A DNA stretch of 60,703 nt from Patescibacteria group bacterium (GCA_040752125.1 JBFMFK010000005.1:1-60703), one strand, 5' to 3'; shown: positions 13,203 to 60,470, counted from the stretch's first letter. The notes: a model not told the origin generated them from the letters alone. Made by a program: numbers and translations.

Positions 13203-15071
13203 ATGGCGTCATCAATATCAGATTTATTAAAAAGAAACAAAAAGCCAGAAAAGAATCAAGAAGAAACGGTTCCTTTGATTCCTCAAGAGATATACGAAAC
13301 CGAAACCGGTGTTCTTGAGCTTCAGGACATTATTGCACCTTCGGCACTGGAGATAAATTCCAGCATGATAAAAATAGGCGAGAAAGTTGCCAGAATATTT
13401 TTTATCATTTCTTATCCGCGCTATCTGGCAATGCAATGGTTCTCCCCTGTGATCAATTTGGATAAAATTTTTGATGTTTCTATTTTTATTCACCCAGTAG
13501 AAACCGGCACTGTTCTACGTCAGATGCAAAAAAGGGTTGCCGAAGTTCAATCGCAGATTCATATGCGTGAAGAAAAAGGACTTGTCAGAGATCCAATGCT
13601 TGATACTGCCTATCAGGATTTGGAAGATTTGCGAGATAAATTGCAGCAGGCTCAGGAAAAATTATTTTCTGTTGGCATCTATATAACCATTTACGCTGAT
13701 AATGTTGAAGAATTAAACAGGTTGGAAAGGGAGGTCAGAACTGTTTTGGAATCAAAATTAGTTTATGCCAGACCAGCACTTTTCCAGCAAATGCAGGGCC
13801 TGAAAAGTGTTCTGCCATTCTGCACTGATGAACTGGAGGTCAATATAAAAATGAATTCCGCACCTCTTTCTAGCATTTTCCCCTTTGTTTCATTTGATCT
13901 TTCTGCTGATAAAGGAATTTTATATGGAATCAATCGTCATAATAGCAGTTTAGTCCTTTTTGACAGATTTTCTTTAGAAAATTACAACTCAGTCATCTTT
14001 GCCAAGGCCGGTGCCGGGAAATCTTATGCTACCAAATTAGAAATTTTAAGAACAATGATGTTTGAGACCGATGTGATAGTAATTGATCCAGAGCGGGAAT
14101 ATGAATATCTGGCCGAGGCAGTTGATGGAAGATATTTTAATATTTCCTTAACTTCTAAGCACCATATCAATCCCTTTGAGCTTCCTCCTGTCGGAGAGAA
14201 TGAATCTCTAGACGATGTCCTGCGTTCAAATATCATCAGTTTGATTGGTTTATTTAGATTGATGCTGGGCGGACTGACGCCAGAAGAAGATGCCATTATG
14301 GATAAGGCAATCACAGAGACTTATGCTGCAAAGGATATCACCCCAGAGGTAAATTTTTCCAATGCAGTTCCGCCAACACTGTCTGATTTGGAACTGGTCT
14401 TGGCTGGAATGGAAGGAGGCGATTCTTTGGCCCAAAGATTATCAAAATACACCAAGGGAACCTGGTCGGGATTTATTAATCAGCCAACCAACGTTGATAT
14501 CAACAAAAAACTTGTTGTCTTTTCAGTCAGAGATATGGAAGATGAATTAAGACCAGTGGCAATGTATATTATCACTCATTTTATCTGGAATATTATTAGA
14601 AGAAACTTAAAGAAAAGACTGCTCGTAGTTGATGAAGCGTGGTGGATGATGAAATCACCGGACACAGCCTCTTTCTTGTACAGCATTGCCAAAAGGTGCA
14701 GAAAATATTTTTTAGGTCTAGCAACAATTACTCAGAATGTTGAAGATTTTATGAGTTCGCCCTATGGTGTGCCAATCATCACCAATTCTTCTGTTCAGTT
14801 ACTCTTGAAGCAGTCTCCTGCATCAATTGATGTTGTGCAAAAGACATTTAATCTTACTGATGAAGAAAAATTTCTCTTGCTGGAATCAGATGTTGGTGAA
14901 GGCATTTTCTTTGCCGGACTAAAGCATGTGGCTATAAAGATTTTGGCTTCTTATACTGAAGACCAGATTATCACTTCAGATCCGGCCCAGCTTTTGGCAA
15001 TTAAAAAGGCAAAAACTGAATTTTCGCAGGAAAAAGAGCAAACATTATCAGCACCCAATTTGCAAAAATAA
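13203..15071 (+). CDS. virB4: VirB4/TraC-type T4SS ATPase
   Basis: Walker A FAKAGAGKSYATK, Walker B LLVVDEAWWMM, and an N-terminal IAPSALEI...YPRYL block typical of VirB4-like proteins. Confidence 0.8.
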   Translation: MASSISDLLKRNKKPEKNQEETVPLIPQEIYETETGVLELQDIIAPSALEINSSMIKIGEKVARIFFIISYPRYLAMQWFSPVINLDKIFDVSIFIHPVETGTVLRQMQKRVAEVQSQIHMREEKGLVRDPMLDTAYQDLEDLRDKLQQAQEKLFSVGIYITIYADNVEELNRLEREVRTVLESKLVYARPALFQQMQGLKSVLPFCTDELEVNIKMNSAPLSSIFPFVSFDLSADKGILYGINRHNSSLVLFDRFSLENYNSVIFAKAGAGKSYATKLEILRTMMFETDVIVIDPEREYEYLAEAVDGRYFNISLTSKHHINPFELPPVGENESLDDVLRSNIISLIGLFRLMLGGLTPEEDAIMDKAITETYAAKDITPEVNFSNAVPPTLSDLELVLAGMEGGDSLAQRLSKYTKGTWSGFINQPTNVDINKKLVVFSVRDMEDELRPVAMYIITHFIWNIIRRNLKKRLLVVDEAWWMMKSPDTASFLYSIAKRCRKYFLGLATITQNVEDFMSSPYGVPIITNSSVQLLLKQSPASIDVVQKTFNLTDEEKFLLLESDVGEGIFFAGLKHVAIKILASYTEDQIITSDPAQLLAIKKAKTEFSQEKEQTLSAPNLQK

Positions 15072-23603: not shown

Positions 23604-25352
23604 ATGAGGGTTGAGCCTCAACAACTAAAGATGTTTTTGCTTGACTCAGGTTTGGTTTCCAGTGATGATATCAATGTTGCCGAAGAAAAAGCGAAGAAAA
23701 ATAAAAAATATTTAGGCAACATTCTGGTAGAAGAAGGAAAAATTTCAGAAGATGATCTGAGACGTTTAGAAGCCTATATTCTGGGTGTGCCATTTGTAAG
23801 TCTTGAGAATGAAAAGATAGATTTTGAAGTTTTAAGTTTAATCCCAGAACCCATTGCCAGAACACACAATATAGTTGCCTATAAAAAAACTGATAATAAT
23901 TTAGAGGTGGCCATGCTGGACCCAGAAGATCTGGGAACGATTGATTTTATTAAAAAGAAGTTAAATTATAGAATTCTGCCGCGACTGACAGATGTCCAGT
24001 CAATCAAAAGCGTTCTCACTCAATACCAAAAAAGTCTACAGGCTGAATTTGGCGACATCATCCAAAAAGAGGCCCTCTCTTTAAGAGTCGTGTCAGAAAA
24101 AGAAAAAGAAACAGCAGAAGAAGATTTGAAAAAATTAGCTGAGGAGGTGCCGGTGGTGAGAATAGTGGACACGCTTTTTCGTCACGCCATTCTTCAGAAG
24201 GCAAGTGATATTCACATTGAGCCAATGGAAAAAGAAGTTATCGCACGTTATAGAATTGATGGCATCTTAAGAAATGCTATGGTTCTTCCCAAAAACGTTA
24301 GCGCCGGTCTTATAGCGAGGATAAAAGTTTTAGCCAATCTCAAATTAGATGAGAAGAGACTTCCCCAAGACGGTAGATTTAAACTTGAAACCCCTGACGA
24401 ACGAGTTTCATTTCGCGTCTCCATTCTCCCGGTTTTTTATGGAGAGAAGGCTGTTTTAAGAATTTTAAGAGAGAATGTTAAGGGTTTTACTTTGGAAGGT
24501 TTGGGTTTTGGCGAGTTGCAGATTGAACATTTACATCGGGCAATAAAAAGACCCCATGGCATGATCTTGGTAACAGGCCCCACTGGCTCTGGAAAGACAA
24601 CCACACTTTATAGTGTTATGGAAATTTTGAATATCCCTCAAGTTAATATTTCTACTATTGAAGATCCTATTGAATACCAAATACCTAGAGTGAACCAGAC
24701 GCAGGTCAAGCCCGAAATTGGCTTCAGTTTTGCTTCAGGTTTGAGATCTTTGGTGCGTCAGGATCCTGATATCATTATGGTAGGAGAGATTAGAGATAAT
24801 GAAACTGCCTCTCTGGCTGTCAATGCGGCCCTGACTGGTCACCTCGTTCTCTCCACACTCCATACGAATTCTGCGGCTGGAGCCATACCAAGATTATTGG
24901 ATATGAAAGTTGAGCCGTTTTTATTAGCTTCCACTTTAAACTTGATTGTTGCTCAAAGATTAGTAAGGAGACTTTGTTCTGTGAAAGAAAAATATTTTTT
25001 AAGCAAATTACAATTAAATGATCTAAAATATAGTATTGATATAGAAAAAGTACATCAGCTTTTAATTGAGAGAAAGATAATCCATTCTCAGGACAATTGG
25101 GAAAAGATACCGTTTTACAAGCCAAAAGAGTCCAAGGATTGTACAGATGGATATAGAGATAGAATTGGCATCCACGAAGTTTTAGAGGTGAGAGAATCTA
25201 TCAAGAACTTAATTATGTCTAATGCAACCTCTGACGACATTGAAAAACAGGCCAAGAAAGAAGGTATGAGCACAATGGTAGAAGATGGGATTATTAAGGC
25301 CGTTCAAGGAATTACTACAATAGAAGAAGTTTTAAGAGTAACCAGGGAATAA
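23604..25352 (+). CDS. pilB: Type IV pilus assembly ATPase (GspE/PilB family)
   Basis: N-terminal GSPII-E N-domain-like region. Walker A GPTGSGKTTT, Asp box, Walker B MVGEIRD, His box LVLSTLHTN. Confidence 0.9.
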   Translation: MRVEPQQLKMFLLDSGLVSSDDINVAEEKAKKNKKYLGNILVEEGKISEDDLRRLEAYILGVPFVSLENEKIDFEVLSLIPEPIARTHNIVAYKKTDNNLEVAMLDPEDLGTIDFIKKKLNYRILPRLTDVQSIKSVLTQYQKSLQAEFGDIIQKEALSLRVVSEKEKETAEEDLKKLAEEVPVVRIVDTLFRHAILQKASDIHIEPMEKEVIARYRIDGILRNAMVLPKNVSAGLIARIKVLANLKLDEKRLPQDGRFKLETPDERVSFRVSILPVFYGEKAVLRILRENVKGFTLEGLGFGELQIEHLHRAIKRPHGMILVTGPTGSGKTTTLYSVMEILNIPQVNISTIEDPIEYQIPRVNQTQVKPEIGFSFASGLRSLVRQDPDIIMVGEIRDNETASLAVNAALTGHLVLSTLHTNSAAGAIPRLLDMKVEPFLLASTLNLIVAQRLVRRLCSVKEKYFLSKLQLNDLKYSIDIEKVHQLLIERKIIHSQDNWEKIPFYKPKESKDCTDGYRDRIGIHEVLEVRESIKNLIMSNATSDDIEKQAKKEGMSTMVEDGIIKAVQGITTIEEVLRVTRE

Positions 25353-25353
25353 A

Positions 25354-26562
25354 GTGCATTTTAGTTACATAGCCAAAAAAATATCTGGAGAGGAAATTAA
25401 GGGAGTAATGGACGCTAAGGATAAATTTGATCTTGCCAGAATGTTAAGACAGCAGGACTATTTTCTGGTTTCCTGCAAAGAAGAATCCGGGAAGAAAAGT
25501 CTCTTACATTTTAGATCATTACTCGGCAGAGTTTCCATTTCAGAAAAGATGTTTTTCAGTAGAAACATTTCCATAATGATTTCTGCCGGTGTCTCTATTG
25601 CACGCAGCCTTGATATTTTATGCCGACAGACAAAAAATAAAAGTTTTAAAAAAATTATCATCAGTCTCGCAGATAATATAAAGAAAGGAAATACTCTAAG
25701 CGAGAGCATGAAAATTTATCCCAAAATTTTTCCCCCATTTTTTACAGCCATGGTTAAAGTGGGAGAAGAGAGCGGAAATTTAAGCGAGTCTCTCAGACTT
25801 ATTGGCGAGCAGCTTGAAAGAGATCATACCTTAAGGAAAAAAATTAAAGGAGCCCTGGTATATCCTGCTATAATCATTACGGCTATGGTCGGTATTGGCA
25901 TTCTAATGCTGATTTATGTTGTACCAACACTTGTTTCCACATTTCAGGAATTGGGGGTAGATTTGCCCATTAGTACGCGCATAGTCATTGCCACCAGCAA
26001 TTCCTTGTTGAATTACCCTCTGGTTTTTGTTGCAGCTCTTTTTATACTGGCATCATTACTGCTTTTCTTTTTCCGTTCTCAAAAAGGCAGATATTTGATG
26101 AGCAATATTTTAATGCGTCTCCCTCTTTTCTCATCCTTGGTCAAAAAAATAAACTCCGCCAGAACTGCCAGAACCCTATCGTCATTAATTAGTGCTGGAG
26201 TTGATATTTTGAATGCCTTGACTATAACAAAAGATGTTCTAACGAACTATAAATATCAAGAGGTTATCCAAAGGGCCAGAGATGATATTCAAAAAGGCAT
26301 GCCGATTTCTGAATCTTTTAAGAAAGCCTCTAATGTTTACCCCATTTTGGTTGGAGAAATGATGGCGGTGGGAGAGGAAACTGGAAAGCTGTCGGAAATG
26401 CTTTTGCGCATAGCCGGATTTTATGAAGATGAAGTGGCAGAGACCACAAAAAATATGTCCACTATTATTGAACCGATTTTAATGGTAATCATTGGTGCAG
26501 TTGTGGGGTTTTTTGCTGTATCTATGATCAAGCCAATGTATTCTATGGTCAATAATATGTAA
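25354..26562 (+). CDS. pilC: Type IV pilus platform protein (GspF/PilC family)
   Basis: GTG start. Two T2SS-F repeats (..MISAGVSIARSLDIL.. and ..LISAGVDILNALTI..) and 3 TM segments. Confidence 0.85.
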   Translation: MHFSYIAKKISGEEIKGVMDAKDKFDLARMLRQQDYFLVSCKEESGKKSLLHFRSLLGRVSISEKMFFSRNISIMISAGVSIARSLDILCRQTKNKSFKKIIISLADNIKKGNTLSESMKIYPKIFPPFFTAMVKVGEESGNLSESLRLIGEQLERDHTLRKKIKGALVYPAIIITAMVGIGILMLIYVVPTLVSTFQELGVDLPISTRIVIATSNSLLNYPLVFVAALFILASLLLFFFRSQKGRYLMSNILMRLPLFSSLVKKINSARTARTLSSLISAGVDILNALTITKDVLTNYKYQEVIQRARDDIQKGMPISESFKKASNVYPILVGEMMAVGEETGKLSEMLLRIAGFYEDEVAETTKNMSTIIEPILMVIIGAVVGFFAVSMIKPMYSMVNNM

Positions 26563-36934: not shown

Positions 36935-37231
36935 TTAGGATCTTTTCTTTTCATAAATTATCTTTTCATCCTTCAGGATATAATCTTTTAAGAGCGGCTT
37001 TATGGCGGTATATTCTACAAGGTCCACTTTTTTACCAAGCTTATCTTCCAGTTCAAGTTTTAATCCCACAAAATCAAACAAACTCTTTCCTTTCTTAAGT
37101 TTGACTAATAAATCAATATCACTTCGTTTTTTCGTTTCGCCCCGCGCGCAAGAGCCAAAAAGAGCCGCTTTGGTCACCCCTTGGCGTTTTAAAACAGGAA
37201 CAATTTTCTTTTTTATGGCTTGGATTGTCAT
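36935..37231 (-). CDS. Minimal nucleotidyltransferase (MNT antitoxin-type)
   Basis: ALFGSCARGETKKRSDIDLLV motif, 98 aa. Confidence 0.8.
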   Translation of the reverse strand: MTIQAIKKKIVPVLKRQGVTKAALFGSCARGETKKRSDIDLLVKLKKGKSLFDFVGLKLELEDKLGKKVDLVEYTAIKPLLKDYILKDEKIIYEKKRS

Positions 37232-37260
37232 ATATGAGTTATGTTATCATAATTTTAATT

Positions 37261-38721
37261 ATGAATCAAAGGACGGCTGCGGTTTTGCTGGGAGGGTTTG
37301 TTGCGGGTGTTTTGCTGCGTTCTTTTGTTGATTTCGGCTGGCAGTTTGCCGGCTTTTTTGTTTTGATTGGGATTGTTTTAATAATACTTTCTTTTATAAC
37401 GGAAAGCAGAAAATTATTTTTATTAACCGGCGTTTTCTTTTTTGCCCTGGCTGTCGGTGTGTTGCGTTATGAATTTAAAGATTACAAAAATAAAAATTTA
37501 TTAGAACAAAAAGTTGAGCAAAGAATCGCCATTGAAGGAATTATAGTTGATGAGCCCGATTCAAGAGAAAACTATACAAAATATGTCATTGAATCCGATT
37601 CGCCAGTTGGCGGAGAAAAAATCCTTGTTTATTCTTATCATTATCCTGAATTTCATTATGGAGATAAAATTAGAGCAGCTGGTTTATTAAAGAAACCGCA
37701 AAACATCAATGATTCTTTTAATTGGATTTCTTATCTTGCCAAGGATGACATTTATTATGGAATGATTTATCCGAAAATTGAATTTCTTTCTTCTAGGAAT
37801 GCATCTTTGATCAAAGAGAAACTTTTTACATTAAAAGAAAAATTTATCGGCAATATTAATAAAGTAATACCAGAACCACACTCTTCTTTTATGGGGGGGA
37901 TAACAGTTGGAGCGAGGCAGAGCATTCCTAAAGATTTGGTGGAGGATTTCAGGAAAACAGGTATAGTTCATGTTATTGTACTTTCTGGTTATAACATCAC
38001 TTTGGTGGCTGACACCACTATGAAAATTTTCAGTTTTTTGCCAAGGGTCGTGGGAACAAGTTTTGGTGTTTTAGGTATCGTCCTTTTCACCATAATGACA
38101 GGTGCTGGAGCAGCTACGGTAAGGGCTTCTATTATGGCGCTTTTAATTGTTCTTGCAAAGACAACAGGAAGAATCTACAGTATCATCTGGGCTTTAATTG
38201 TCACTGGGTTTTTGATGATTTTACACAACCCCAAAATTCTAGTTTTTGATACTGGATTTCAACTTTCTTTCTTGGCAACCCTATCTCTAATTTATTTAGC
38301 GCCTCATTTTGAGCAAAAATTGAAATTTATTACGAAAAAATGGAAATTGCGCGAAATTGCTTCCGCGACTCTAGCAACACAGGTTTTTGTTTTGCCTTTG
38401 TTACTTTATAAAACAGGATTACTTTCTCTGGTTTCTTTGCCCGTTAATCTTTTAATTTTAATTTTTGTGCCAGTCACGATGTTTTTTGGTTTCATTACCG
38501 GAGGCCTCGGAATGATAAGTCATCTTTTAAGTATTCCCTTTGGCTGGATTAGTTATGTTTTTTTGCAATATGAACTTTGGATTGTAGAATGGTTTGCTAA
38601 GTTATCTTTTTCGTCATTTACTATTTCTAATTTCCCATTAGGATTGACGCTGGGTGTGTATACAATTTATGGATGGTGGATTTATAAAATAAAAAAAGAG
38701 AATCAAAAGAATAAAAAATAA
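37261..38721 (+). CDS. comEC: ComEC/Rec2 DNA-uptake channel (OB/DUF4131 plus competence membrane domain only)
   Basis: Polytopic protein with ..GIVHVIVLSGYNITLV.., TGAGAATVRASIMA and FQLSFLAT motifs. The start is at MNQRTAAVLLGG (37261), 7 nt after CATAAT. Confidence 0.8.
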   Translation: MNQRTAAVLLGGFVAGVLLRSFVDFGWQFAGFFVLIGIVLIILSFITESRKLFLLTGVFFFALAVGVLRYEFKDYKNKNLLEQKVEQRIAIEGIIVDEPDSRENYTKYVIESDSPVGGEKILVYSYHYPEFHYGDKIRAAGLLKKPQNINDSFNWISYLAKDDIYYGMIYPKIEFLSSRNASLIKEKLFTLKEKFIGNINKVIPEPHSSFMGGITVGARQSIPKDLVEDFRKTGIVHVIVLSGYNITLVADTTMKIFSFLPRVVGTSFGVLGIVLFTIMTGAGAATVRASIMALLIVLAKTTGRIYSIIWALIVTGFLMILHNPKILVFDTGFQLSFLATLSLIYLAPHFEQKLKFITKKWKLREIASATLATQVFVLPLLLYKTGLLSLVSLPVNLLILIFVPVTMFFGFITGGLGMISHLLSIPFGWISYVFLQYELWIVEWFAKLSFSSFTISNFPLGLTLGVYTIYGWWIYKIKKENQKNKK

Positions 38722-44051: not shown

Positions 44052-44909
44052 ATGAAACAGGGAGGATTACAAAGATCAATTAATTCCCTCAAGGATTATT
44101 TCTCAAAACGAGACGATATTTTGATGGCTTTTATTTTTGGTTCGCAAGTCAGAGGTAAAACAACACTGGAGTCCGATTTTGATATAGCCGTTTACTTTAA
44201 ACCGAAAAGTGGACGATTAGAATACGAGGATGATGTTTTTTATGACCAGGAAACAGAAATTTGGAATGACCTTGAGAAACTTTTGAGAAGCAAAGTGGAT
44301 TTTGTTGTTCTGAACCGATTACCATCTGTTTCTGCTTTCCCAATTATCAATAAGGGTATACCAATCATCATTAAAGATAGAAAAATATATCTTGATTTTT
44401 TATTACGTGTAAGTTCCCTGGCGATTGATTTCAGGGAGTTTATGAGAGATTTTGTGGCAATCAAAGCACGCTCGCACTCACTGAGCATAGAAGATAAAGA
44501 TAATCTTATTAAAATAGTCAATTTTCTAGAAAAAGAATTGATGGATTCTGAAGAATATGAAAAACTTGATTTCAGGACATACAAATCAGATGCTAAAAAA
44601 AGAAGAAGTGTTGAGCGATGGGTGGAAAACATCGTAAATGCGTCAATTGATATTGCCAAGATTCTTTTGGCTTCAAAAAAACAACAACTCCCAGACACTT
44701 ATGTTGATACCGTAAACCTCTTGTCGATTTTGGAGGAATTTGATGAAGAAATATCCAAAAAAATGGCTTCTTTTGTAAAGTTAAGAAATTTGATGGCACA
44801 TGAATATTTAGACTTGCGTTTCAGTCAAATTCAGGAATTTATCAAAGAAGCGAAAAAGATTTACGGTTATTTAATTGAATACGCCGATAATTTTATTAAG
44901 AAAAATTAA
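44052..44909 (+). CDS. Single-chain fusion of an MNT nucleotidyltransferase domain and a DUF86-type HEPN domain
   Basis: N-terminal FIFGSQVRGKTTLESDFDIAVY (GS..D.D). C-terminal ..RWVENIVNASIDIAK.. and RNLMAHEY (R-x4-H). The start is at ATG 44052; the track starts at TTG 44043. Confidence 0.7.
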   Translation: MKQGGLQRSINSLKDYFSKRDDILMAFIFGSQVRGKTTLESDFDIAVYFKPKSGRLEYEDDVFYDQETEIWNDLEKLLRSKVDFVVLNRLPSVSAFPIINKGIPIIIKDRKIYLDFLLRVSSLAIDFREFMRDFVAIKARSHSLSIEDKDNLIKIVNFLEKELMDSEEYEKLDFRTYKSDAKKRRSVERWVENIVNASIDIAKILLASKKQQLPDTYVDTVNLLSILEEFDEEISKKMASFVKLRNLMAHEYLDLRFSQIQEFIKEAKKIYGYLIEYADNFIKKN

Positions 44910-44916
44910 AAATCCG

Positions 44917-47304
44917 ATGAAAATTGTTGCGGATTTGCATATTCATTCAAAATATTCGCGGGCGGTTTCTCAAGAAATGACTCTGGAAAATATTGCTCTT
45001 TGGGCAAAGAAAAAAGGGATTCAGGTAATGGGAACAGGTGATTTTACTCATCCGCAGTGGTTTGATGACATCAAAACTAAATTAGAACCAGCAGAGAACG
45101 GACTTTACAATCTCAAATCTCAAATCTCAAATCTCAAATCTGAAGTTTCAAGTTTCAAGTTTCAAGATACGCGCTTTATGCTCACTGCGGAAATCTCCAG
45201 TATTTATTCAAAAGGCGGGAAAGTGCGGAGAATCCATAATTTGATTTTTGCGCCTTCAATAGAGGCAGTGGAAAAAATTAACACCAAACTCGGCTGGATA
45301 GGGAATTTAAAAGCAGATGGCCGGCCGATTCTCGGTTTGGATTCCAAAGAATTGCTGAAAATAATTTTAGAGGCAGATGAGAAATGTGTTTTGATTCCGG
45401 CTCATGCCTGGACACCCTGGTTTTCTATTTTCGGTTCTATGTCCGGTTTTGATTCTATTGAAGAATGTTTCGAGGAAATGTCACCTCATATTTTTGCCAT
45501 TGAAACAGGACTTTCATGTTATGATGAAAAGACTGAGGTTCTAGCCGAAAGTGGATGGAAGAAATTTGCTGACGTTAGACAGGAAGATAAAATCTGCACA
45601 CTCAATATTTCTACAGAAGAAATTGAGTATCAAAAACCGCAAGAGATTTACCACTCAAAATATCGTGGCAAGATGTATAGATTAAAAACTAAGCGAGCGG
45701 ATTTGCTCGTTACTCCAAATCATAATTTATTATATGCTCCTGTTGATTTTCGTGTGCGAAGGCCATACCGATTAAAAGAAGTCCGTTCTCTGTTCGGGAA
45801 ATCAAAAATATTAAGAAAAGACGGAATTTGGAAAGGAGAAAATCTGCATTATTTTACGTTGCCAGAAGTAAAAATACAACACGGAAGTAGATTTTATTCC
45901 GGTTTTCGGACTAAAAAAGAGAAAACAATTCCCATCAAACAATGGCTGAAATTTTTTGGCTTTTGGATAGCTGAAGGGTGGACAACGAAAGGTAATAATG
46001 GTGATTACGCTGTTTGTATTTCTAATAAAAATTATGAATTGATGACAGAAATGAAGCATATTTTAGAGAGTTTTGGATATAGTGTATTTTGGGATAAAAA
46101 AACAACAAACACAATTCGGGTAAGAGATTATCAACTTTTTCATTATTTGAAACAATTTGGGAAAGCATCTGAGAAACATCTTCCAATGGAAATTAAAACA
46201 TTATCAAGTAAGCTTCTTGAGATATTCTTGCAATATTATTTAAAGGGAGATGGTCATGTATACGGTAGAAATGGTAAGGGAAGATCAGCAACGACAATAT
46301 CAATACGTCTGCGCGATGATTTACAAGAAATTGCCTTGAAAACAGGAGATTCTGCATACTATAAGTTACTGAGAAAGAAAGGTTCTCCTTCCAACTCTCC
46401 GAGTCAGAAAAAACAATACTATCAGAGTGCAGATTCTTGGAATATCTATTTTATACGTCATAATCGCCATGCTATTATTCCTTCAACAATGAAGAAGTAT
46501 GGATACAAAGAGCAATGGGTTGATTATGACGGAATGGTATACTGTGTTTCAGTACCAAATCATACCGTATATATAAGACGAAATGGAATTCCTCTCTGGT
46601 GTGGGAATTCTGATCCGGCTATGAACTGGCGGCTTTCTAGCCTTGATAAAATCTCTTTAATTTCTAATTCTGATTCCCATTCTTTGCAAAAACTCGGCAG
46701 GGAAGCCAATGTTTTTGATTGCGAACTTTCTTATCGGGGAATTATTGACGCCATCAGGAGCAAAGACCCCAAAAAATTCTTGTATACCATAGAATTTTTT
46801 CCAGAGGAAGGCAAGTATCATTACGACGGCCACCGCGACTGCAGGGTGTCATTTCCGCCTGACGAAACAGAGAAACACAGAATGATTTGCCCGGTCTGCG
46901 GCAAGCAGTTGACCGTGGGCGTGCTTAATCGAGTTGCTCAATTAGCCGATTTACCCGCCGAAGCCGTAGCGAAGGCGGGCAGAATTCCCTTTAAGAATCT
47001 TATTCCCCTTGACGAAATAATCGGCGAGGCAATGAGCGTTGGCCCAAAATCAAAAAAAGTAATGGAGGAGTATGAAAAATTGGTTTCTAATTTCGGCAGC
47101 GAATTAAATGTTTTGGAAGAAGTTTCTTACGATGAAATTTCTAGGGTCGGGAATACCGAACTTGGCGAGACAATAAAAAGAGTGAGGGAGGGAAGAGTTA
47201 TTATCAAACCGGGCTATGACGGCGAATATGGAAAAATTTCTATTTTTACAGAAGACGAGAAAGAGAATATATTATCTGGTAGATCTCAATCAAGTCTTTT
47301 CTAA
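44917..47304 (+). CDS. EndoQ-like PHP-domain nuclease with Zn ribbon (COG1379-type), interrupted by an intein
   Basis: MKIVADLHIHSKYSRA and GTGDFTHPQW PHP motifs. CPVCGKQLTVGVLNRV Zn ribbon. C-terminal KPGYDGEYGKI. A 364-aa in-frame insertion lies between ..FAIETGLS and SDPAMNW.. Confidence 0.75.
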   Translation: MKIVADLHIHSKYSRAVSQEMTLENIALWAKKKGIQVMGTGDFTHPQWFDDIKTKLEPAENGLYNLKSQISNLKSEVSSFKFQDTRFMLTAEISSIYSKGGKVRRIHNLIFAPSIEAVEKINTKLGWIGNLKADGRPILGLDSKELLKIILEADEKCVLIPAHAWTPWFSIFGSMSGFDSIEECFEEMSPHIFAIETGLSCYDEKTEVLAESGWKKFADVRQEDKICTLNISTEEIEYQKPQEIYHSKYRGKMYRLKTKRADLLVTPNHNLLYAPVDFRVRRPYRLKEVRSLFGKSKILRKDGIWKGENLHYFTLPEVKIQHGSRFYSGFRTKKEKTIPIKQWLKFFGFWIAEGWTTKGNNGDYAVCISNKNYELMTEMKHILESFGYSVFWDKKTTNTIRVRDYQLFHYLKQFGKASEKHLPMEIKTLSSKLLEIFLQYYLKGDGHVYGRNGKGRSATTISIRLRDDLQEIALKTGDSAYYKLLRKKGSPSNSPSQKKQYYQSADSWNIYFIRHNRHAIIPSTMKKYGYKEQWVDYDGMVYCVSVPNHTVYIRRNGIPLWCGNSDPAMNWRLSSLDKISLISNSDSHSLQKLGREANVFDCELSYRGIIDAIRSKDPKKFLYTIEFFPEEGKYHYDGHRDCRVSFPPDETEKHRMICPVCGKQLTVGVLNRVAQLADLPAEAVAKAGRIPFKNLIPLDEIIGEAMSVGPKSKKVMEEYEKLVSNFGSELNVLEEVSYDEISRVGNTELGETIKRVREGRVIIKPGYDGEYGKISIFTEDEKENILSGRSQSSLF
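45109..45164. repeat. Heptanucleotide tandem array (AATCTCA x4, AATCTGA x1, AGTTTCA x3) inside the EndoQ-like gene
   Basis: Eight consecutive 7-nt units read directly. Encodes ..NLKSQISNLKSEVSSFKFQ.. Confidence 0.9.
45517..46608 (+). mobile_element. Intein with LAGLIDADG homing-endonuclease domain
   Basis: Starts with Cys (CYDEKTEVLAESG). Block B is LLVTPNHNLL (T-x-x-H). Two LAGLIDADG-type motifs (LKFFGFWIAEGWT and IFLQYYLKGDGHV). Ends ..VYIRRNGIPLWCGN with a +1 Ser. The flanks join to ETGLS|SDPAMNW. Confidence 0.8.
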
Positions 47305-48681: not shown

Positions 48682-48714
48682 GAGCGAGGTCTGCGTTTAG
48701 CAGACCGAGTCGAG

Positions 48715-49071
48715 TGGAGGTGGGGAGGGCGAACTCCCGTCCAAAAATTTATCCTAAAATATTTCTACAAACTTATCTGATTTTAAAATTTCAGAATAAT
48801 AAGTATAAAATCGGAAAAATCTCATTATTCTTATCTCCTTCCGCCAGATGGCAGATTTTCGGAAATTTCTCGGAGAAATTAAATTTCCTATTCCAATGAT
48901 AACACTCGGCCCTACCTATTGGACATCAGTAGGTAAGCGTGCTTTATGCGTATGCTAAAGCAGGTGTTCTAAATAAGTTTGCACTTATTGATTTTCTAAA
49001 AGTTTTACGAGCTTTTAGAATACTCGGTTTGCATATTTTATTCAAAATTATTGTCAAAACCAGTCACCCCC
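48715..49071 (-). ncRNA. ssrA: tmRNA (SsrA)
   Basis: The minus-strand 5' end GGGGGUGACUGGUUUUGACA pairs with the 3' end ..GGACGGGAGUUCGCCCUCCC-CACCUCC-A to form a 7-bp acceptor stem with a G3:U70 pair and a T-arm. An internal tag ORF reads GCA AAC UUA UUU AGA ACA CCU GCU UUA GCA UAC GCA UAA, giving ANLFRTPALAYA* (48944-48982). It is adjacent to smpB. CCA is not encoded. Confidence 0.85.
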
Positions 49072-51477: not shown

Positions 51478-51549
51478 GCGCGTGTAGCTCAATGGCAGAG
51501 CATCGAGCTTATACCTCGAGGGTTGTAGGTTCGAATCCTACCACGCGTA
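51478..51549 (+). tRNA. tRNA-Ile with genomically encoded UAU anticodon
   Basis: Cloverleaf folded by hand. Acceptor GCGCGUG/CACGCGU (G1-U72 wobble). D arm GCUC-AAUGGCA-GAGC. Anticodon arm UCGAG-CUUAUAC-CUCGA. Variable loop GGGUU. T arm GUAGG-UUCGAAU-CCUAC. Discriminator A. No encoded CCA. Confidence 0.85.
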
Positions 51550-55214: not shown

Positions 55215-57326
55215 TTATTCTGGATGAAAATCTAGTTTTTGTTCCTTTAGTCTTTTAAAAATTAAGGGATAATTTTTTAGAGTCGGATCTTCTTTAATAA
55301 TCGCCTGCGATTCAATCTGTGCAGCCTCAACCATTTTTATGTTTTTTAATGCCTCCATACCAATATCAGAGATGCCCCATTGCTTTGTCCCGCCCAGCTC
55401 TCCTGGTCCCCTGAATTGTAAATCATATTCTGCCAATTCAAAACCATTCCTGGCATTTACTAAAGCATTTAATCTCTGTCTTGTTTTTAAAGAGTTAGAT
55501 TCAGTGAAAACAAAACAATAAGGCTGGAAGGTACTGCGGAGTACTCGGCCCCGTAATTGATGTAATTGAGCCAAACCAAAACGTTCTGCACCTTCAATAA
55601 CAATTATTGTGGCATTAGGAACATCTATCCCGACTTCAATTACTGAAGTAGAAACCAAAATCTGAATTTTATTATTCCGAAAATGATTCAAAACTTTTTC
55701 TTTTTCTTTAGGTAACATTTTCCCGTGGAGCATCCCTATTTTAAATTCCGGGAAGATCTCTTTCTGTAAGATTTCAAATTCTTTTTTAACAGCCTTGACA
55801 TTTAGGGCATTGAATTTTTCTAGATCTGGTTCATCAATACGCGGACAAATGATATACGCTTGTCGCCCGGATTTTATTTCTTTTCTTATTTTCTCATAGG
55901 CCTTCTCTCTCTCATCAGAACCGACAATTATGGTGATAATTTTTTTCCTTCCAACAGGCATCTCGTCGAGAAGGATTAAATCCAAATCATTGTAAATTGT
56001 CAGAGCCAAGGTGCGAGGAATGGGCGTGGCAGTCATAGATAAAAGGTGGGGGATTGATTCTGATTTTTGTCTTGCTAGAATCGCACGTTGTCTTGTACCA
56101 AAACGATGCTGTTCATCAATGATGACAAAAGCAAGATTTTTAAACTTTACCTTATCTTGGATGAGAGATTGTGTGCCGATTAAAATCGGTATCTCTCCGT
56201 TTTCCACCCATTTCAGCAACTGGCTTTTTGAGATATGAGTTGAATCTTTGACATTAATCTTAGAGGGATATTTTCTACATTCAGAAGATGTAATCAATCC
56301 TATCTTTGTGGTCAATTGCAATTGGGAGAAATAGTTTATAAATGATTGAAAATGTTGTTGGGCCAAAATTTCTGTTGGTGCCATATAAGCCACCTGATAA
56401 TTTTTTCTGATTATTGCGTATGAAGCAGCCACAGCCACAGCTGTTTTTCCAGATCCAACATCACCTTCTAGAAGACGACACATCGGATAATCTTTCGAAA
56501 AATCATCAATAATACGCTCAATTGCATTTTTCTGAGCATTAGTGAGAGTGAAAGAGAAAGTGGCCATAAAATTATTAATCTCCTCTCTATTGATTGTGAC
56601 CTTAAAAGAATGATGGCTTTTGTAATGAATTCTGTTTTTTAGTCCGGCAAGTTGTAGAAAAAATATTTCTTCAAAGGCAAATCTTTTACGTGCAGCTTCT
56701 GCATCTTTTGTGGTTTTGGGAATGTGGATATAGATCAAGGAGGATTTAAGTTTAGGCAGATGGTAAGTGTTGAGAATTCTTTCTGGGAGAGGATCTTGAG
56801 GAAATTCATCCAAATTTTTTAAAATTTTTTTTATAGCCGCTCTTATCCATTGGGAAGTAATCCCTCGGATTTCCGGGTAAATTGCCACAATATTTTTACC
56901 CTTGCCGATTTCTTGATAAGAATCTATTTTTTCATAAAGAGGGTTAGCAATGTAAAGTCCTGATTTACCAAAAGCAATTTTGCCAGTTAAGGCCACCTTA
57001 TCCCCGGGTTTTAAAATTTTTGCAATGTATGGCTGACGAAACCAGATGGCCTTGATAATACCAGTACTGTCGCTTATCTCGGCCTGGGTAAAGTAATATT
57101 TTCTATGAAACGATTTTTCAGAACTAACTTCTGCAATCTTTCCATAAACAATAGTTTTATCTCCTTCAACCAACTCGCTGATATTTTTTCTTTCTGAAAA
57201 AGATTCATAGCGCGAAGGAAAGTAAAAACACAGATCTTTAACAGTCTTCAAACCTAGTTTCAAAAGCGCATTTTTTTGTCTTTCGGCAAGTCTAAAATTT
57301 TTTTCAAGCAGAGAGTCAATTTGCAT
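55215..57326 (-). CDS. recG: ATP-dependent DNA helicase RecG
   Basis: OB wedge region. LLEGDVGSGKT (Walker A), IIDEQHRFG (DEQH), SMTATPIPRTLA, and the TRG-like motif QLHQLRGRVLR. Confidence 0.9.
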   Translation of the reverse strand: MQIDSLLEKNFRLAERQKNALLKLGLKTVKDLCFYFPSRYESFSERKNISELVEGDKTIVYGKIAEVSSEKSFHRKYYFTQAEISDSTGIIKAIWFRQPYIAKILKPGDKVALTGKIAFGKSGLYIANPLYEKIDSYQEIGKGKNIVAIYPEIRGITSQWIRAAIKKILKNLDEFPQDPLPERILNTYHLPKLKSSLIYIHIPKTTKDAEAARKRFAFEEIFFLQLAGLKNRIHYKSHHSFKVTINREEINNFMATFSFTLTNAQKNAIERIIDDFSKDYPMCRLLEGDVGSGKTAVAVAASYAIIRKNYQVAYMAPTEILAQQHFQSFINYFSQLQLTTKIGLITSSECRKYPSKINVKDSTHISKSQLLKWVENGEIPILIGTQSLIQDKVKFKNLAFVIIDEQHRFGTRQRAILARQKSESIPHLLSMTATPIPRTLALTIYNDLDLILLDEMPVGRKKIITIIVGSDEREKAYEKIRKEIKSGRQAYIICPRIDEPDLEKFNALNVKAVKKEFEILQKEIFPEFKIGMLHGKMLPKEKEKVLNHFRNNKIQILVSTSVIEVGIDVPNATIIVIEGAERFGLAQLHQLRGRVLRSTFQPYCFVFTESNSLKTRQRLNALVNARNGFELAEYDLQFRGPGELGGTKQWGISDIGMEALKNIKMVEAAQIESQAIIKEDPTLKNYPLIFKRLKEQKLDFHPE

Positions 57327-57783
57327 AAATTATGACAATATCTTCAATCTTGATGTTGTTTTTTTGCGCAAAACCTGAATTTGTCTCTAAAACATATCTT
57401 GCTGGCCCGACAGGATGATAAGTTGCACAACTTTGCTCTTTGCAGGGCAGGGCTTTTTGGATGTCTACTATCTTAAAATTATTGTTTATCCAGATTATAT
57501 CTAAGGGCAAGAAGGTATTTTTCATCCAAAAAGGATAATAATCTTCTTTGTCAAAAGTAAAAAGCATGCCGTAATTTTCTTTCAATTCCTTTCTAAACAT
57601 TAATCCACGAGCTTGGTCCATAGCTGTTTCGGCAATCTCTGATTTAACGCAAATATTATTATTAAAGCAGACAAATGCATACTTGGGGGAGATATTTCCA
57701 TCTTTTAACCAAAAGAAAAATAAAAACAGAAACAATGCAGAAAAAAGCAGTGCTGTTAAAAGAAAAAGTTTTAAAAAATTCAT
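57316..57783 (-). CDS. DUF192-family secreted/membrane-anchored protein
   Basis: ..ARGLMFR..L....GMLF.F......FWMKNT..PLDIIWI.. is the DUF192 signature. Confidence 0.7.
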   Translation of the reverse strand: MNFLKLFLLTALLFSALFLFLFFFWLKDGNISPKYAFVCFNNNICVKSEIAETAMDQARGLMFRKELKENYGMLFTFDKEDYYPFWMKNTFLPLDIIWINNNFKIVDIQKALPCKEQSCATYHPVGPARYVLETNSGFAQKNNIKIEDIVIIYAN

Positions 57784-57795
57784 TATACCCCAATT

Positions 57796-58596
57796 TTAAT
57801 GAAGCGTGCTATCAAAAAGAATGCCGTTTGCCCAATAGAATCCAGTCTCCCCCGAGGGTAATATATCATATGTTGAATCTTGATTACAGGGGACACGTTC
57901 TGTACTGACAACAGAGACACCGTTATAAATATCACCGGCCGCAAGATTACCAACAGTACGTCCGTCAATGGTGGGATGACCAGGAGAGATGAACAGCTTT
58001 CTGCCATTACCTAGCACCAAATAAACCATTTGATGTGTCATTGTTAGGGCCACTCTCGACGTCTTTATAATGACACCGGGAACACGAAGACCGGTTTTAT
58101 TAGTTGTCCAGATTGGCATTCCAATCTTTAAATCTTTGACTGGCACCAATCCTAAGGGCGTATCAATAAGCGTATCGCCAGCCAGACAGATGGGGCAGCC
58201 ACCATAGGGTGGCTGTATGACAATTTTATTAAAAGTTATAGTCTGGCCAGGAAAATCAATATTTATGAGTTTTTCTGATACGCCCTCACAGGTATATCCT
58301 ATATCATCTCCGATACGCAGAATTTTAGGAGAACCAGGATCATTTGGTCTCTCAATGGGATATTTTGCAAACCAAAGACCTTCAACACTGTCAGGATTAA
58401 TCTTTTGAATCAAGAAAGAGCCTTCTCTTTCACCAATGGTCTTATTTATTTTTTCAACATCGGGGATCGATGTTAGTATTGGTTTGGGAGGAGGAACAGT
58501 TTGCTGTTTCAAATAAAAATAAACGCCTGCGCTAGCAATCATAATGACAACTATGACTAAGATAATATTCACAAATCCTTTTTTGTTCATATTCAA
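57796..58596 (-). CDS. Membrane-anchored protein ending in a Hint (Hedgehog/intein-like) autoprocessing domain with no C-extein
   Basis: N-terminal TM anchor and a ~110-aa unknown domain. This is followed by ..PYGGCPI|CLAGDTLIDTPLGLVPVKDLKIG.. (intein block A-like), ..LFISPGHPT.. (block B-like) and ..FYWANGILFDSTLH* at the very C-terminus. Confidence 0.7.
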   Translation of the reverse strand: MNMNKKGFVNIILVIVVIMIASAGVYFYLKQQTVPPPKPILTSIPDVEKINKTIGEREGSFLIQKINPDSVEGLWFAKYPIERPNDPGSPKILRIGDDIGYTCEGVSEKLINIDFPGQTITFNKIVIQPPYGGCPICLAGDTLIDTPLGLVPVKDLKIGMPIWTTNKTGLRVPGVIIKTSRVALTMTHQMVYLVLGNGRKLFISPGHPTIDGRTVGNLAAGDIYNGVSVVSTERVPCNQDSTYDILPSGETGFYWANGILFDSTLH

Positions 58597-59387
58597 TTTT
58601 TTTGTCTTTGATAGCGCATGCTAAAGAAGGCAACTAGACCGACAACGGCAAGACCAACAAATATTAATGTGATTAATGATCTGTCAGTTTCCGCATACTG
58701 TTTGGTGCCTTGTGAAATCGGTATTGTTGTTATAACTGGAGATGAATCCTTGCTTTGAGTTGTTGGTTCCGCATTTTGAGTAATCTTGAAGTTTAATCCT
58801 GCACTTTTTACCAATGGTTCTTTTTTTAGCGTTGTGATCCATAATTGTTCTTCTCCGACAGGAACCTTGACAACTCCCCATAGATGGATAGTTGCTGCAG
58901 AAGAATTCTCAGAGACGATATCAAGGATTCCCAAGTCTTTAAATGAATCAATAAGATTTCTTATATTTCTTTCTGTCGCAGTATTATTGAATAGGACAAT
59001 TAATACAATGCCCCCATACTTTTCAATGTATGTAAATGAAACAGGCCATGAGCTGACTAAAATTGACATCTTGCCATACATCTCCTTGTCCTTGTTTATA
59101 ATTTCTTTCACCAAAGCATCGCGTAAAGAGAAATCATCAATAATTTCTTTGGGTATTTGGATATATGCCCGGAGAGAAGAAATTTGAACAAAAAATGGGC
59201 CCTCTTTCCATTGTAGATAATGAGAATTTATTACATTTTTTACTTGTTGTTCTGTGGCATTATTTGTAAACTCTACTATGATTTCGCCGGGAACATATTC
59301 ATTTTCTGCATTAACATTGAAAGTAGCGGCTAAAATCAAGAGTATCGCTATGAACAAAAAATTTTTGTTGTATATAAAAAATTCCAT
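58593..59387 (-). CDS. Secreted protein with two alpha/beta repeats (subtilase-propeptide-like by eye) and a C-terminal motif-TM-basic tail
   Basis: Signal peptide ..FNVNA|EN. YVPGEIIVEFTNNATEQQVKNVI and GGIVLIVLFNNTATERNIRNLI repeats. C-terminus YAETD-RSLITLIFVGLAVVGLVAFFSM-RYQRQKN. Confidence 0.5.
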   Translation of the reverse strand: MEFFIYNKNFLFIAILLILAATFNVNAENEYVPGEIIVEFTNNATEQQVKNVINSHYLQWKEGPFFVQISSLRAYIQIPKEIIDDFSLRDALVKEIINKDKEMYGKMSILVSSWPVSFTYIEKYGGIVLIVLFNNTATERNIRNLIDSFKDLGILDIVSENSSAATIHLWGVVKVPVGEEQLWITTLKKEPLVKSAGLNFKITQNAEPTTQSKDSSPVITTIPISQGTKQYAETDRSLITLIFVGLAVVGLVAFFSMRYQRQKN

Positions 59388-59472
59388 TTAAATTAATTTC
59401 AGAATACATCATCAATTGGTAAAATACAACAATCGCCAAATTTGATTTTAATATCTTTCGTTAAAAAGATTC

Positions 59473-60078
59473 TCAAAATGGAAGGTCGTTTGAATTATTT
59501 CCGAGGCGATAACCAATGAAATATCCTCCTGTACCGCCTAGATCCCATATAATTTTGCCGCATGAGGAGCCGTCCCCGTTATCCACTTTGTCATCCGCCT
59601 CTTCCACGACATCCAATAATGTCTGGTCCCAAATATTCAAAAATACACCGTTCCAAATCGACCCATCCGCGCATCCGTCACCATTCGTATCAAAGGTATC
59701 GCCATCATTGTCATAAACATAAAGATTTGTATCAATGCCGGCGTTTCCTGAGAGCCAATCGCCCAAAGCGAAGTTTTCTGCAAGACAAGTTATGGTCGGC
59801 TCATCCTCAGAACTTCCGGATGTCCCACACGTCGGTAAAAAATCATCCTCATGCCACCATTCTATGATACCTTCCTCTATTCCCCATCCCGCAAGGGCTT
59901 TTGCGATCTGATTAGAATCGCTGACAAGTTTTGCCGCTTTTGCTTTTGTCCTCGCGGAATTTAAACTCACCAAAACTATTGATGCCAGAATTCCGATTAT
60001 TGCTATTACAATCAGCAGTTCAATGAATGTAAATCCTCTCGGTATCAAAAAAAAATTAGATTTTTGTTTTATAAACAT
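59473..60078 (-). CDS. Type IV pilin (candidate major pilin) with an Asp/Gly-rich Ca-binding-like C-terminal region
   Basis: Class-III signal ..LIPRG|FTFIELLIVIAIIGILASIVLVSL. DNDGDTFDTNGDGCADGS motif. TATATT box 6 nt upstream of the ATG on the minus strand. Confidence 0.85.
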   Translation of the reverse strand: MFIKQKSNFFLIPRGFTFIELLIVIAIIGILASIVLVSLNSARTKAKAAKLVSDSNQIAKALAGWGIEEGIIEWWHEDDFLPTCGTSGSSEDEPTITCLAENFALGDWLSGNAGIDTNLYVYDNDGDTFDTNGDGCADGSIWNGVFLNIWDQTLLDVVEEADDKVDNGDGSSCGKIIWDLGGTGGYFIGYRLGNNSNDLPF

Positions 60079-60099: not shown

Positions 60100-60470
60100 C
60101 GAGAATACAGTAGTACTCTTGTTGCTGCCAGTATCTTATCGCGAGGTTCACAGCTTCTCTCGAAGCAGAACCGTTGGCTACATCAGCGATGCCACTTCCA
60201 TTTGCTTGCTGCGCTGGTGCGGGGAAACGGAACTGGCTGGGCTCGGCGGGCGGAATTCCTTCCACACCCCCCCTTCCGCCCGCCGAGCCCGCGTAGCAGG
60301 CGAGCCAAACCTTTCTTTTTTCAACTGGCGGTGTATTTTAAAAATAGCTCGAACTGAATTCTGTCCTCGCCGCGCACAGCGCGGCTCGGAATGGGCGGGC
60401 GAGCAAAAATGAGCGGCTCCGCCGCGAACATTCCAAACTGCAAAAGAACCTGAAAACAAATCGGCTCGAA
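60100..60470. other. G+C-rich, hairpin-dense non-coding island (candidate structured RNA or mobile-element terminus)
   Basis: Abrupt rise in G+C relative to the rest of the window. A perfect 16-bp inverted repeat pairs 60239-60254 with 60275-60290, with a 20-nt C-rich loop. A second hairpin is at 60369-60385. A recurring GGCGGGCG/CGCCCGCC motif is present. The ORFs here have no protein-like sequence. Confidence 0.4.

Follow-up and report, generated by a model that had tools for sequence, protein, structure and literature searches.

Hint domains that cleave without splicing are well known in animals, where Hedgehog is the familiar case, and have barely been studied in prokaryotes. Here we describe a protein with a C-terminal Hint domain (the Hint protein), encoded on the minus strand of a 60,703-nucleotide stretch of DNA from a Patescibacteria group bacterium (GCA_040752125.1, JBFMFK010000005.1:1-60703). 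The whole stretch, with a GC content of ~36%, is referred to as the window, and positions are counted from its first letter. The nearest relatives of the window are all genomes of the candidate phyla radiation (CPR, Patescibacteria). An original prediction, made from the sequence of the window, placed the gene in a pilin operon and proposed Hedgehog-style autoprocessing of its product on the cell surface. We compare the protein with described Hint systems, and then elaborate on its fold, its family, its passenger domain and the likely fate of its predicted cleavage products.

Described Hint systems and the place of this protein

The B-type bacterial intein-like (BIL) domains have the intein motifs save the C-terminal His-Asn, and occur in variable secreted proteins (Amitai et al. 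2003, summarised in PMC7765530). Hog domains consist of a Hint module and a sterol- or adduct-recognition region (SRR/ARR; PMC2362128). A cysteine three residues before the nucleophile (the Cys-3/Cys1 spacing) has been engineered into the Ssp DnaE intein (CPGC) as a 'redox trap', giving N-cleavage upon reduction only, and the same spacing is native to the Pyrococcus abyssi MoaA intein (PMC3922620).

By its fold, motifs and Pfam assignment, the Hint protein belongs to the Hint_2/B-type BIL kind. It shares with these domains the Hint fold, the presence of motifs A, B and F, the lack of His-Asn, the occurrence on variable, non-conserved secreted or surface proteins, and an expected cleavage at the N-terminal junction. 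It differs from them in lying strictly at the extreme C-terminus (0-9 residues follow throughout the family), in having an invariant Cys-3 (CPxC) and an invariant terminal Ser-Thr-Leu, and in its hosts, which include CPR bacteria, DPANN archaea, Thaumarchaeota and Chloroflexi, whereas the classical BIL hosts are proteobacterial. The C-terminal His-Asn that defines A-type BIL domains is replaced by an end of the form ANGIL-x-(G/D)-S-T-L.

Like Hedgehog HhC (1at0), the protein carries a C-terminal Hint domain on a putatively exported polypeptide, with Cys1, a block B Thr/Ser-x-x-His and no C-extein, and separation of the passenger from the Hint domain is expected to proceed via a thioester. In contrast to HhC, it has no SRR/ARR after the Hint module and its junction reads GGCPI|C rather than GG|CF; inteins and BIL domains are nearer to it than HhC in both sequence and structure. 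The mini-inteins (gp41-1, Npu/Ssp DnaB, Mtu RecA) give the best structural and sequence matches, with blocks A, B, F and G alignable, but the Hint protein has no C-extein, has Gly/Asp-Ser in place of His-Asn, contains no homing endonuclease and does not sit within a conserved host protein. It resembles the Cys-3/Cys1 redox-trap inteins in its C-P-x-C, in which the second Cys is the Hint nucleophile at the same spacing; unlike in those inteins, the CPxC is invariant across a whole natural extracytoplasmic family, and the cysteine parity of that family suggests that Cys-3 pairs with the passenger and not with Cys1. In comparison with the pretoxin-HINT proteins, it lacks any domain beyond the Hint module, and neither a PT-HINT match nor an immunity-like conserved neighbour is found. 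Judged from its sequence, the protein is thus not an intein, an A-type BIL domain, a Hog domain or a pretoxin-HINT. Particular to the family are the strictly terminal position, the invariant Cys-3, the Ser-Thr-Leu end, a novel passenger, the spread across domains of life and the existence of Hint-less twins.

Domain organization of the Hint protein

The gene probably starts at the ATG at 58590, giving 264 aa, since homologs mostly begin MNQKGF; residue numbers refer to this form, and all coordinates were checked by translation. The structure was modelled by AF2 on 83 homologs (mean pLDDT 85.6). The features of the gene are as follows.

57796-58590, minus strand: Hint-family surface protein gene, 264 aa from the ATG at 58590 (alternative TTG start at 58596, giving 266 aa, open reading frame 57796-58596)
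58504-58590, minus strand: N-terminal membrane or signal anchor, residues 1-29, MNKKGFVNIILVIVVIMIASAGVYFYLKQ (AF2 helix 3-29)
58462-58503, minus strand: Pro-rich flexible linker, residues 30-43, disordered (pLDDT <50 for residues 31-41)
58198-58461, minus strand: all-beta passenger domain of ~88 aa, residues 44-131, with seven strands in the AF2 model; the Cys101 codon is at 58288-58290
58186-58197, minus strand: junction Cys132-Pro-Ile|Cys135 (CPxC), with the predicted scissile bond Ile134|Cys135
57808-58188, minus strand: Hint domain, 127 aa, residues 135-261 (supported by Foldseek, profile comparison with PDB sequences, Pfam Hint_2 in relatives and invariant columns)
starting at Cys135, minus strand: block A, CLAGDTLIDTP (translation and alignment)
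57976-57987, minus strand: block B, S202-P-G-H205 (translation and alignment)
57865-57867, minus strand: block F Asp, D242 (alignment, TYD)
within the C-terminal end, minus strand: block G, ANGILFDS, with Asp-Ser replacing the intein His-Asn (alignment)
57796-57807, minus strand: tail Thr-Leu-His and stop codon, no C-extein

The motifs on which the original prediction relied (CLAGD for block A, SPGH for block B and the ANGILFDS-TLH end) are all found, and their coordinates were verified. The N-terminal region was put at ~110 aa, which is too short: 134 aa precede Cys1, comprising the transmembrane helix, the linker, the beta domain and CPI. The leaders of relatives are transmembrane helices, ordinary signal peptides or lipoboxes, those in other phyla being lipobox or other hydrophobic leaders. 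From the transmembrane helix, these lipobox and hydrophobic leaders and the extracellular-type passengers of relatives, we infer that the Hint-family proteins are exported and N-terminally tethered.

A Hint domain without splicing features

The prediction that the C-terminal region adopts a Hint fold is solid; profile searches and structure prediction both agree with the original proposal. The window protein itself matches Pfam Hint_2 (PF13403) in block A only, at 20.7 bits (E 5.7e-4), under the gathering score of 28.4 bits, so that the assignment is based on the relatives and on structure. Among 81 relatives taken from species-representative genomes, 78 match Hint_2 (E<=1e-3; best E 2e-10), most database homologs carry a precomputed PF13403 match, and a few are named 'Hint domain-containing protein' by NCBI. 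In a Foldseek comparison of the AF2 model with the PDB, the top matches are solely Hint-fold proteins, each with probability 1.0 and a target-normalised TM of 0.66-0.79. They include the gp41-1 intein (E 2e-6, TM 0.76), the Clostridium thermocellum BIL domain 2lwy (TM 0.79) and Hedgehog HhC 1at0 (E 2e-4, TM 0.69), as well as the DnaB and RecA mini-inteins and the Tetrahymena BIL2 domain. A sequence profile of the Hint region, searched against PDB sequences, finds a consensus intein (E 6e-7) and the gp41-1 intein (E 2.9e-4). In the profile alignments SPGH falls on block B (T-x-x-H), TYD on the block F Asp, and ANGIL-x-(G/D)-S on ANDIL-T-H-N.

Where inteins have a penultimate His and a terminal Asn, this domain has Gly/Asp and then Ser; the +1 position is Thr. 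His-Asn is absent from the C-terminal end of all 83 relatives, and 0-9 residues follow the conserved Ser-Thr-Leu (3 in the window protein by the count from the Hint module); no C-extein, toxin domain or adduct-recognition region follows the Hint module in any of them. With His-Asn replaced and the C-extein missing, both in the window protein and in the 83 relatives, splicing and Asn-dependent C-terminal cleavage are excluded on the aligned sequences, as had been proposed. Of intein chemistry, the Hint domain is predicted to be capable only of the N-S acyl shift and of cleavage at its N-terminal junction.

Distribution of the family and its invariant residues

At E<=1e-3, 594 homologs are found in a large protein database, and the best 120 of them are 49-72% identical to the window protein; a scan of one genome per species gives 176 Hint-family loci. 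The hosts belong to many CPR phyla, DPANN archaea, Thaumarchaeota, Bathyarchaeota, Chloroflexi and Ilumatobacteraceae (Actinobacteria), and include the cultured Nitrosotalea devanaterra (LN890280), the homolog of which has 42% identity over residues 53-263. No paper on this Hint family was found in the literature on Hint domains with CPR, Patescibacteria or Thaumarchaeota. The family is large, unusually conserved and common to CPR bacteria, DPANN archaea and cultured ammonia oxidisers, and knowledge gained on one member would annotate hundreds of 'hypothetical' surface proteins.

The passenger and Hint module together show 42-48% identity between CPR bacteria and Thaumarchaeota or DPANN archaea (our loci L042, L054, L063, L064, L072, L075, the last from N. 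devanaterra, and other archaeal loci). This level of identity suggests inter-domain horizontal transfer in common soil and groundwater habitats.

In an alignment of 81 relatives the invariant columns are C132, C135, L136, I142, G147, S202, H205, T240, D242, T249, G250, Y252 and A254. The catalytic set of Cys1, block B Ser-x-x-His and block F Asp is fully conserved across the family. Loss of the catalytic Cys in orthologs had been named as a possible refutation of the autoprocessing proposal; C135 is invariant in 81/81 relatives. The passengers upstream of the Hint domain vary, and include the 88-aa beta domain, a Cys-rich module and a Chloroflexi-specific domain. Recognisable extracellular passengers are TIG, PKD, PG_binding_1, dockerin, PEGA, beta-helix, pentapeptide repeats and glucose/sorbosone dehydrogenase, and the variable inserts of relatives (TIG, PKD, PG_binding_1 and others) sit at the position of the Pro-rich linker.

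The window protein is the sole member of the 83 with an additional cysteine in the Hint domain, Cys234 (57886-57888; VPCNQD), at an unconserved position.

The passenger domain and its Hint-less relatives

The 88-aa passenger domain has no Pfam or NCBIfam family. Modelled alone by AF2 it gives seven strands with a pLDDT of 81, and Foldseek comparison of this fold with the PDB returns nothing significant (best E 0.13). The matches that it does return are insignificant ones to small-heat-shock-protein-like beta-sandwiches (E>=0.13, TM ~0.3).

A profile of the passenger domain, searched against 1.84 billion representative proteins, recovers 165 clusters at E<=1e-3, and the types of C-terminus were counted among the best 150 of these. 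Full Hint fusions make up 42 of the 150, and a further 17 are Hint fusions truncated by contig ends. In 57 of the 150 best clusters the protein ends exactly in ...GGCPI, GGCPL or GGCPV, 3 residues past the domain, which is the residue before Cys1. Four of these Hint-less genes lie inside longer contigs, where they end in TAA, TGA and TAG stops; beyond the stops the genes or sequence are unrelated and show no trace of a Hint domain. A TGA-encoded selenocysteine at the Cys1 position of the Hint-less forms is ruled out by the mixed stops and the unrelated downstream DNA.

On a neighbour-joining tree of the passenger, which is rough owing to the shortness of the domain, Hint-bearing and Hint-less forms are intermixed, with ~19 state changes over 130 tips. 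Because the Hint-less forms stop at the junction and are intermixed on the tree, the Hint module appears to have been repeatedly gained or lost at exactly Ile134|Cys135. This bond is taken to mark a functional boundary, with the Hint-less forms representing the predicted cleavage product made directly. Their termini are the strongest computational support for autoproteolysis at Ile134|Cys135 and predict the mature C-terminus. The Hint-less forms thereby give a ready prediction of the mature product, and raise the question of what the Hint cap adds.

A further dozen or so proteins, more distantly related to the passenger, end in CPICW and 5-10 further residues (e.g. ...PCPICWHNKN), with both CPxC cysteines and no Hint domain. 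Examples are L084 4001-4519, L086 134-955, L087 4001-4477 and L090 1713-2297 among our loci, and P0212, P0238, P0243, P0252 and P0262 among the database proteins.

Proposed autoprocessing and the fate of the thioester

We consider it reasonably probable that the protein is an exported, N-terminally tethered beta passenger capped by a minimal self-cleaving Hint domain, which is shed after export, and that it acts autonomously of its neighbours. In the proposed first step, an N-S acyl shift after export, Cys135 would attack the Ile134 carbonyl, helped by Ser202 and His205 of block B and Asp242 of block F. The resulting thioester would then break down, most likely through attack by water or a small nucleophile. 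The 130-aa Hint domain would then be shed, and the passenger would remain on the cell, ending in ...Gly-Gly-Cys-Pro-Ile. The original prediction had the N-terminal domain released; because that domain holds the membrane anchor, cleavage would free the Hint domain instead. The process would be self-contained, with no need for a neighbouring gene. Protein engineers might also find a use, as a self-cleaving tag, for so small a Hint domain (127 aa) with its invariant Cys-3.

The junction reads CP[IVLK]C in 82 of 83 relatives, whatever the passenger. The cysteine count of the passenger including Cys-3 (Cys132) is even in 77/83 relatives, and Cys1 is the only Hint-domain cysteine in 82/83. Cys101 is invariant in 130/130 beta-domain proteins, including Hint-less forms that have Cys132 and lack Cys135. 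From the cysteine parity, and from the invariance of Cys101 in the Hint-less forms too, Cys-3 is probably disulfide-bonded to the passenger (to Cys101 here). Such a bond would hold the tail in place, with Cys1 then the sole free thiol.

Several points weigh against this proposal. No biochemical or proteomic evidence of cleavage was found in the literature for any family member, and the window protein itself scores under the Pfam Hint_2 threshold. The Hint domain is strongly conserved (55-70% identity across CPR phyla), though a stop codon at Cys1 would give the same product as hydrolysis, and the conservation of block F/G (TYDILPSGETGFYWANGIL) goes beyond what the fold alone requires. The Hint domain may do more than cleave, e.g. 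in timing, folding help or ligation.

A Hedgehog-style ligation, as in the original prediction, seems unlikely, though it is the likeliest of the alternatives. Here the Ile134 thioester would be attacked by a specific acceptor (a lipid, a cell-wall or S-layer component, or another protein), so that the passenger C-terminus becomes covalently fixed, with the protein either tethered by its two termini or linked to a partner. The invariant catalytic set for thioester formation is consistent with this, the C-terminal position with nothing downstream is the Hedgehog layout (PMC2362128), and ligation would account for the strong selection on the Hint domain despite the existence of Hint-less forms. 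However, the protein stops 3 residues past the 127-aa Hint module, with no adduct- or sterol-recognition region, and the Hint-less relatives finish at the same residue with a plain carboxylate. In addition, the envelopes of the hosts are very different (CPR bacteria, Thaumarchaeota with S-layers only, Chloroflexi), making a common acceptor hard to name, and there is no conserved partner gene.

Redox-gated autoprocessing, which is compatible with either fate of the thioester, appears rather improbable. An extracellular Cys132-Cys135 disulfide would lock the precursor, and its reduction would free Cys1 and allow cleavage. The near-constancy of CP[IVLK]C regardless of passenger, the identical -3/+1 spacing in the engineered Ssp DnaE and native Pab MoaA inteins (PMC3922620) and the predicted extracytoplasmic location of the Hint protein would fit such a lock. 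The even count of passenger cysteines plus Cys-3, and the invariant Cys101 in Hint-less forms that keep Cys132 without Cys135, point instead to a passenger disulfide and a free Cys1. The redox trap was downgraded as the main model after the cysteine-parity count.

We give little chance to a more elaborate form of ligation, in which the CPI thioester of the passenger, maybe first trapped by Cys-3 as a thiolactone, is then joined covalently to an acceptor on the envelope or on a host cell. This would amount to a prokaryotic Hedgehog-like ligation common to CPR bacteria, DPANN archaea and ammonia-oxidising archaea, with the Hint-less ...GGCPI forms as counterparts that do not ligate.

It is very unlikely that the Hint fold serves for structure or binding without catalysis, and that the protein works at full length on the surface. 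The lack of demonstrated cleavage for any member and the sub-threshold Hint_2 score of the window protein would agree with it, but the nucleophile and its helpers are invariant in bacteria and archaea, and the Hint-less relatives stop exactly at the scissile bond, a precision hard to explain without chemical meaning.

Gene neighbourhood and the pilin question

Five closely packed genes occupy the minus strand from 55215 to 60078, in the order pilin, 264-aa protein, Hint protein, DUF192 and recG. They are separated by gaps of 85 nt, 2 nt and 12 nt and then by an 11-nt overlap between the end of the DUF192 gene and the start of recG. This order and the tight junctions are as originally described, the Hint protein having been counted there at 266 aa. 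The neighbours of the Hint gene, and the pilus-related genes elsewhere in the window, are listed below.

59473-60078, minus strand: type IV pilin-like gene with the prepilin motif RG|FTFIELL (N_methyl E 1.7e-7; TIGR02532 E 8.5e-9)
58593-59387, minus strand: 264-aa upstream neighbour with a signal peptide, 2 weak subtilisin-propeptide-like (Fervidolysin_NPro-like) segments (Pfam E 2.9e-4) and a C-terminal transmembrane anchor
57316-57783, minus strand: DUF192 protein (PF02643, E 1.4e-31) with an N-terminal transmembrane segment
55215-57326, minus strand: recG (RecG domains detected)
23604-26562 and 37225-38721, plus strand: PilB-type ATPase (T2SSE, E 1e-127), PilC/GspF and ComEC, 20-35 kb from the pilin gene

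BLAST against the open reading frames of 83 related loci, with up to 8 kb of flank, finds no pilin, homolog of the 264-aa protein or DUF192 near the Hint gene, and recG near it in 3 of the 83. A scan for prepilin motifs over 4 kb around the Hint gene in the 83 loci gives no neighbouring pilin, the single regex match falling inside a Hint-family open reading frame. The genes directly flanking the Hint gene, 127 of them from 67 loci, include no Pfam family more than twice and, by all-against-all clustering, no unannotated family more than three times. The 264-aa neighbour has only 3 homologs in 5.8 billion proteins, none adjoining a Hint gene, making it a nearly orphan surface protein. In one assembly that has homologs of both proteins, at 57% identity to the 264-aa neighbour and 65% to the Hint protein, the two lie on different contigs, each without the other. 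A scan of the cluster for promoters and terminators gives nothing above shuffled background.

The proposed pilin-operon link is not supported by the 83 loci, in which the gene arrangement is not conserved, and the adjacency of the Hint gene to the pilin, 264-aa protein and DUF192 genes looks accidental. The 264-aa neighbour is probably not functionally linked to the Hint protein. CPR genomes are compact. Co-transcription of the cluster in this genome is possible, without functional signal. PilB, PilC and ComEC fit the type IV pilus/competence machinery typical of CPR genomes.

An association of the Hint protein with pili, whether as a minor pilin-like protein or as cargo on the pilin or anchored protein encoded beside it, is extremely unlikely: the gene does share its strand with the pilin gene across tightly spaced intervening genes, its leader MNKKG|F is superficially prepilin-like, and PilB and PilC are encoded elsewhere in the window, but the leader has Gly-Phe with Ile/Leu at +5 and no Glu5, after the helix comes a disordered linker and not a pilin head, relatives carry lipoprotein or ordinary leaders, no pilin is near the gene in the 83 loci, and no promoter or terminator signal above background marks an operon. 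The prepilin reading of the MNKKGF leader was rejected on the missing Glu5, the disordered linker and the lipobox leaders of relatives. For the window, the autoprocessing proposal mainly means better annotation, with the pilus link to be dropped.

Other features of the window

The window holds a second Hint-fold element, as originally noted: a LAGLIDADG intein in a TIGR00375 (EndoQ-like) gene.

44875-47304, plus strand: 809-aa TIGR00375 (EndoQ-like) open reading frame, the match being split in two by the intein (intein N-terminal splicing region, Intein_splicing and LAGLIDADG_3, at about residues 215-575)

Immediately 5' to the pilin gene, at 60100-60400, is a GC-rich island (50-69% GC) with a perfect 17-bp hairpin at ~60233-60299; on either strand the island is predicted to fold more favourably than its shuffled counterparts (z -3.1 and -4.05). 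It matches no Rfam family, and may be a novel structured RNA or a mobile-element remnant. Neither Pfam nor NCBIfam gives a match for a 684-aa open reading frame at 9535-11589 on the plus strand, which is close to a TraG-like P-loop ATPase (13203-15071) and may be part of a module for conjugation or of a type IV secretion-like one. The window also encodes a tmRNA with the tag peptide ANLFRTPALAYA at 48712-49071 on the minus strand, and a tRNA-Ile with the unusual anticodon TAT at 51478-51549 on the plus strand.

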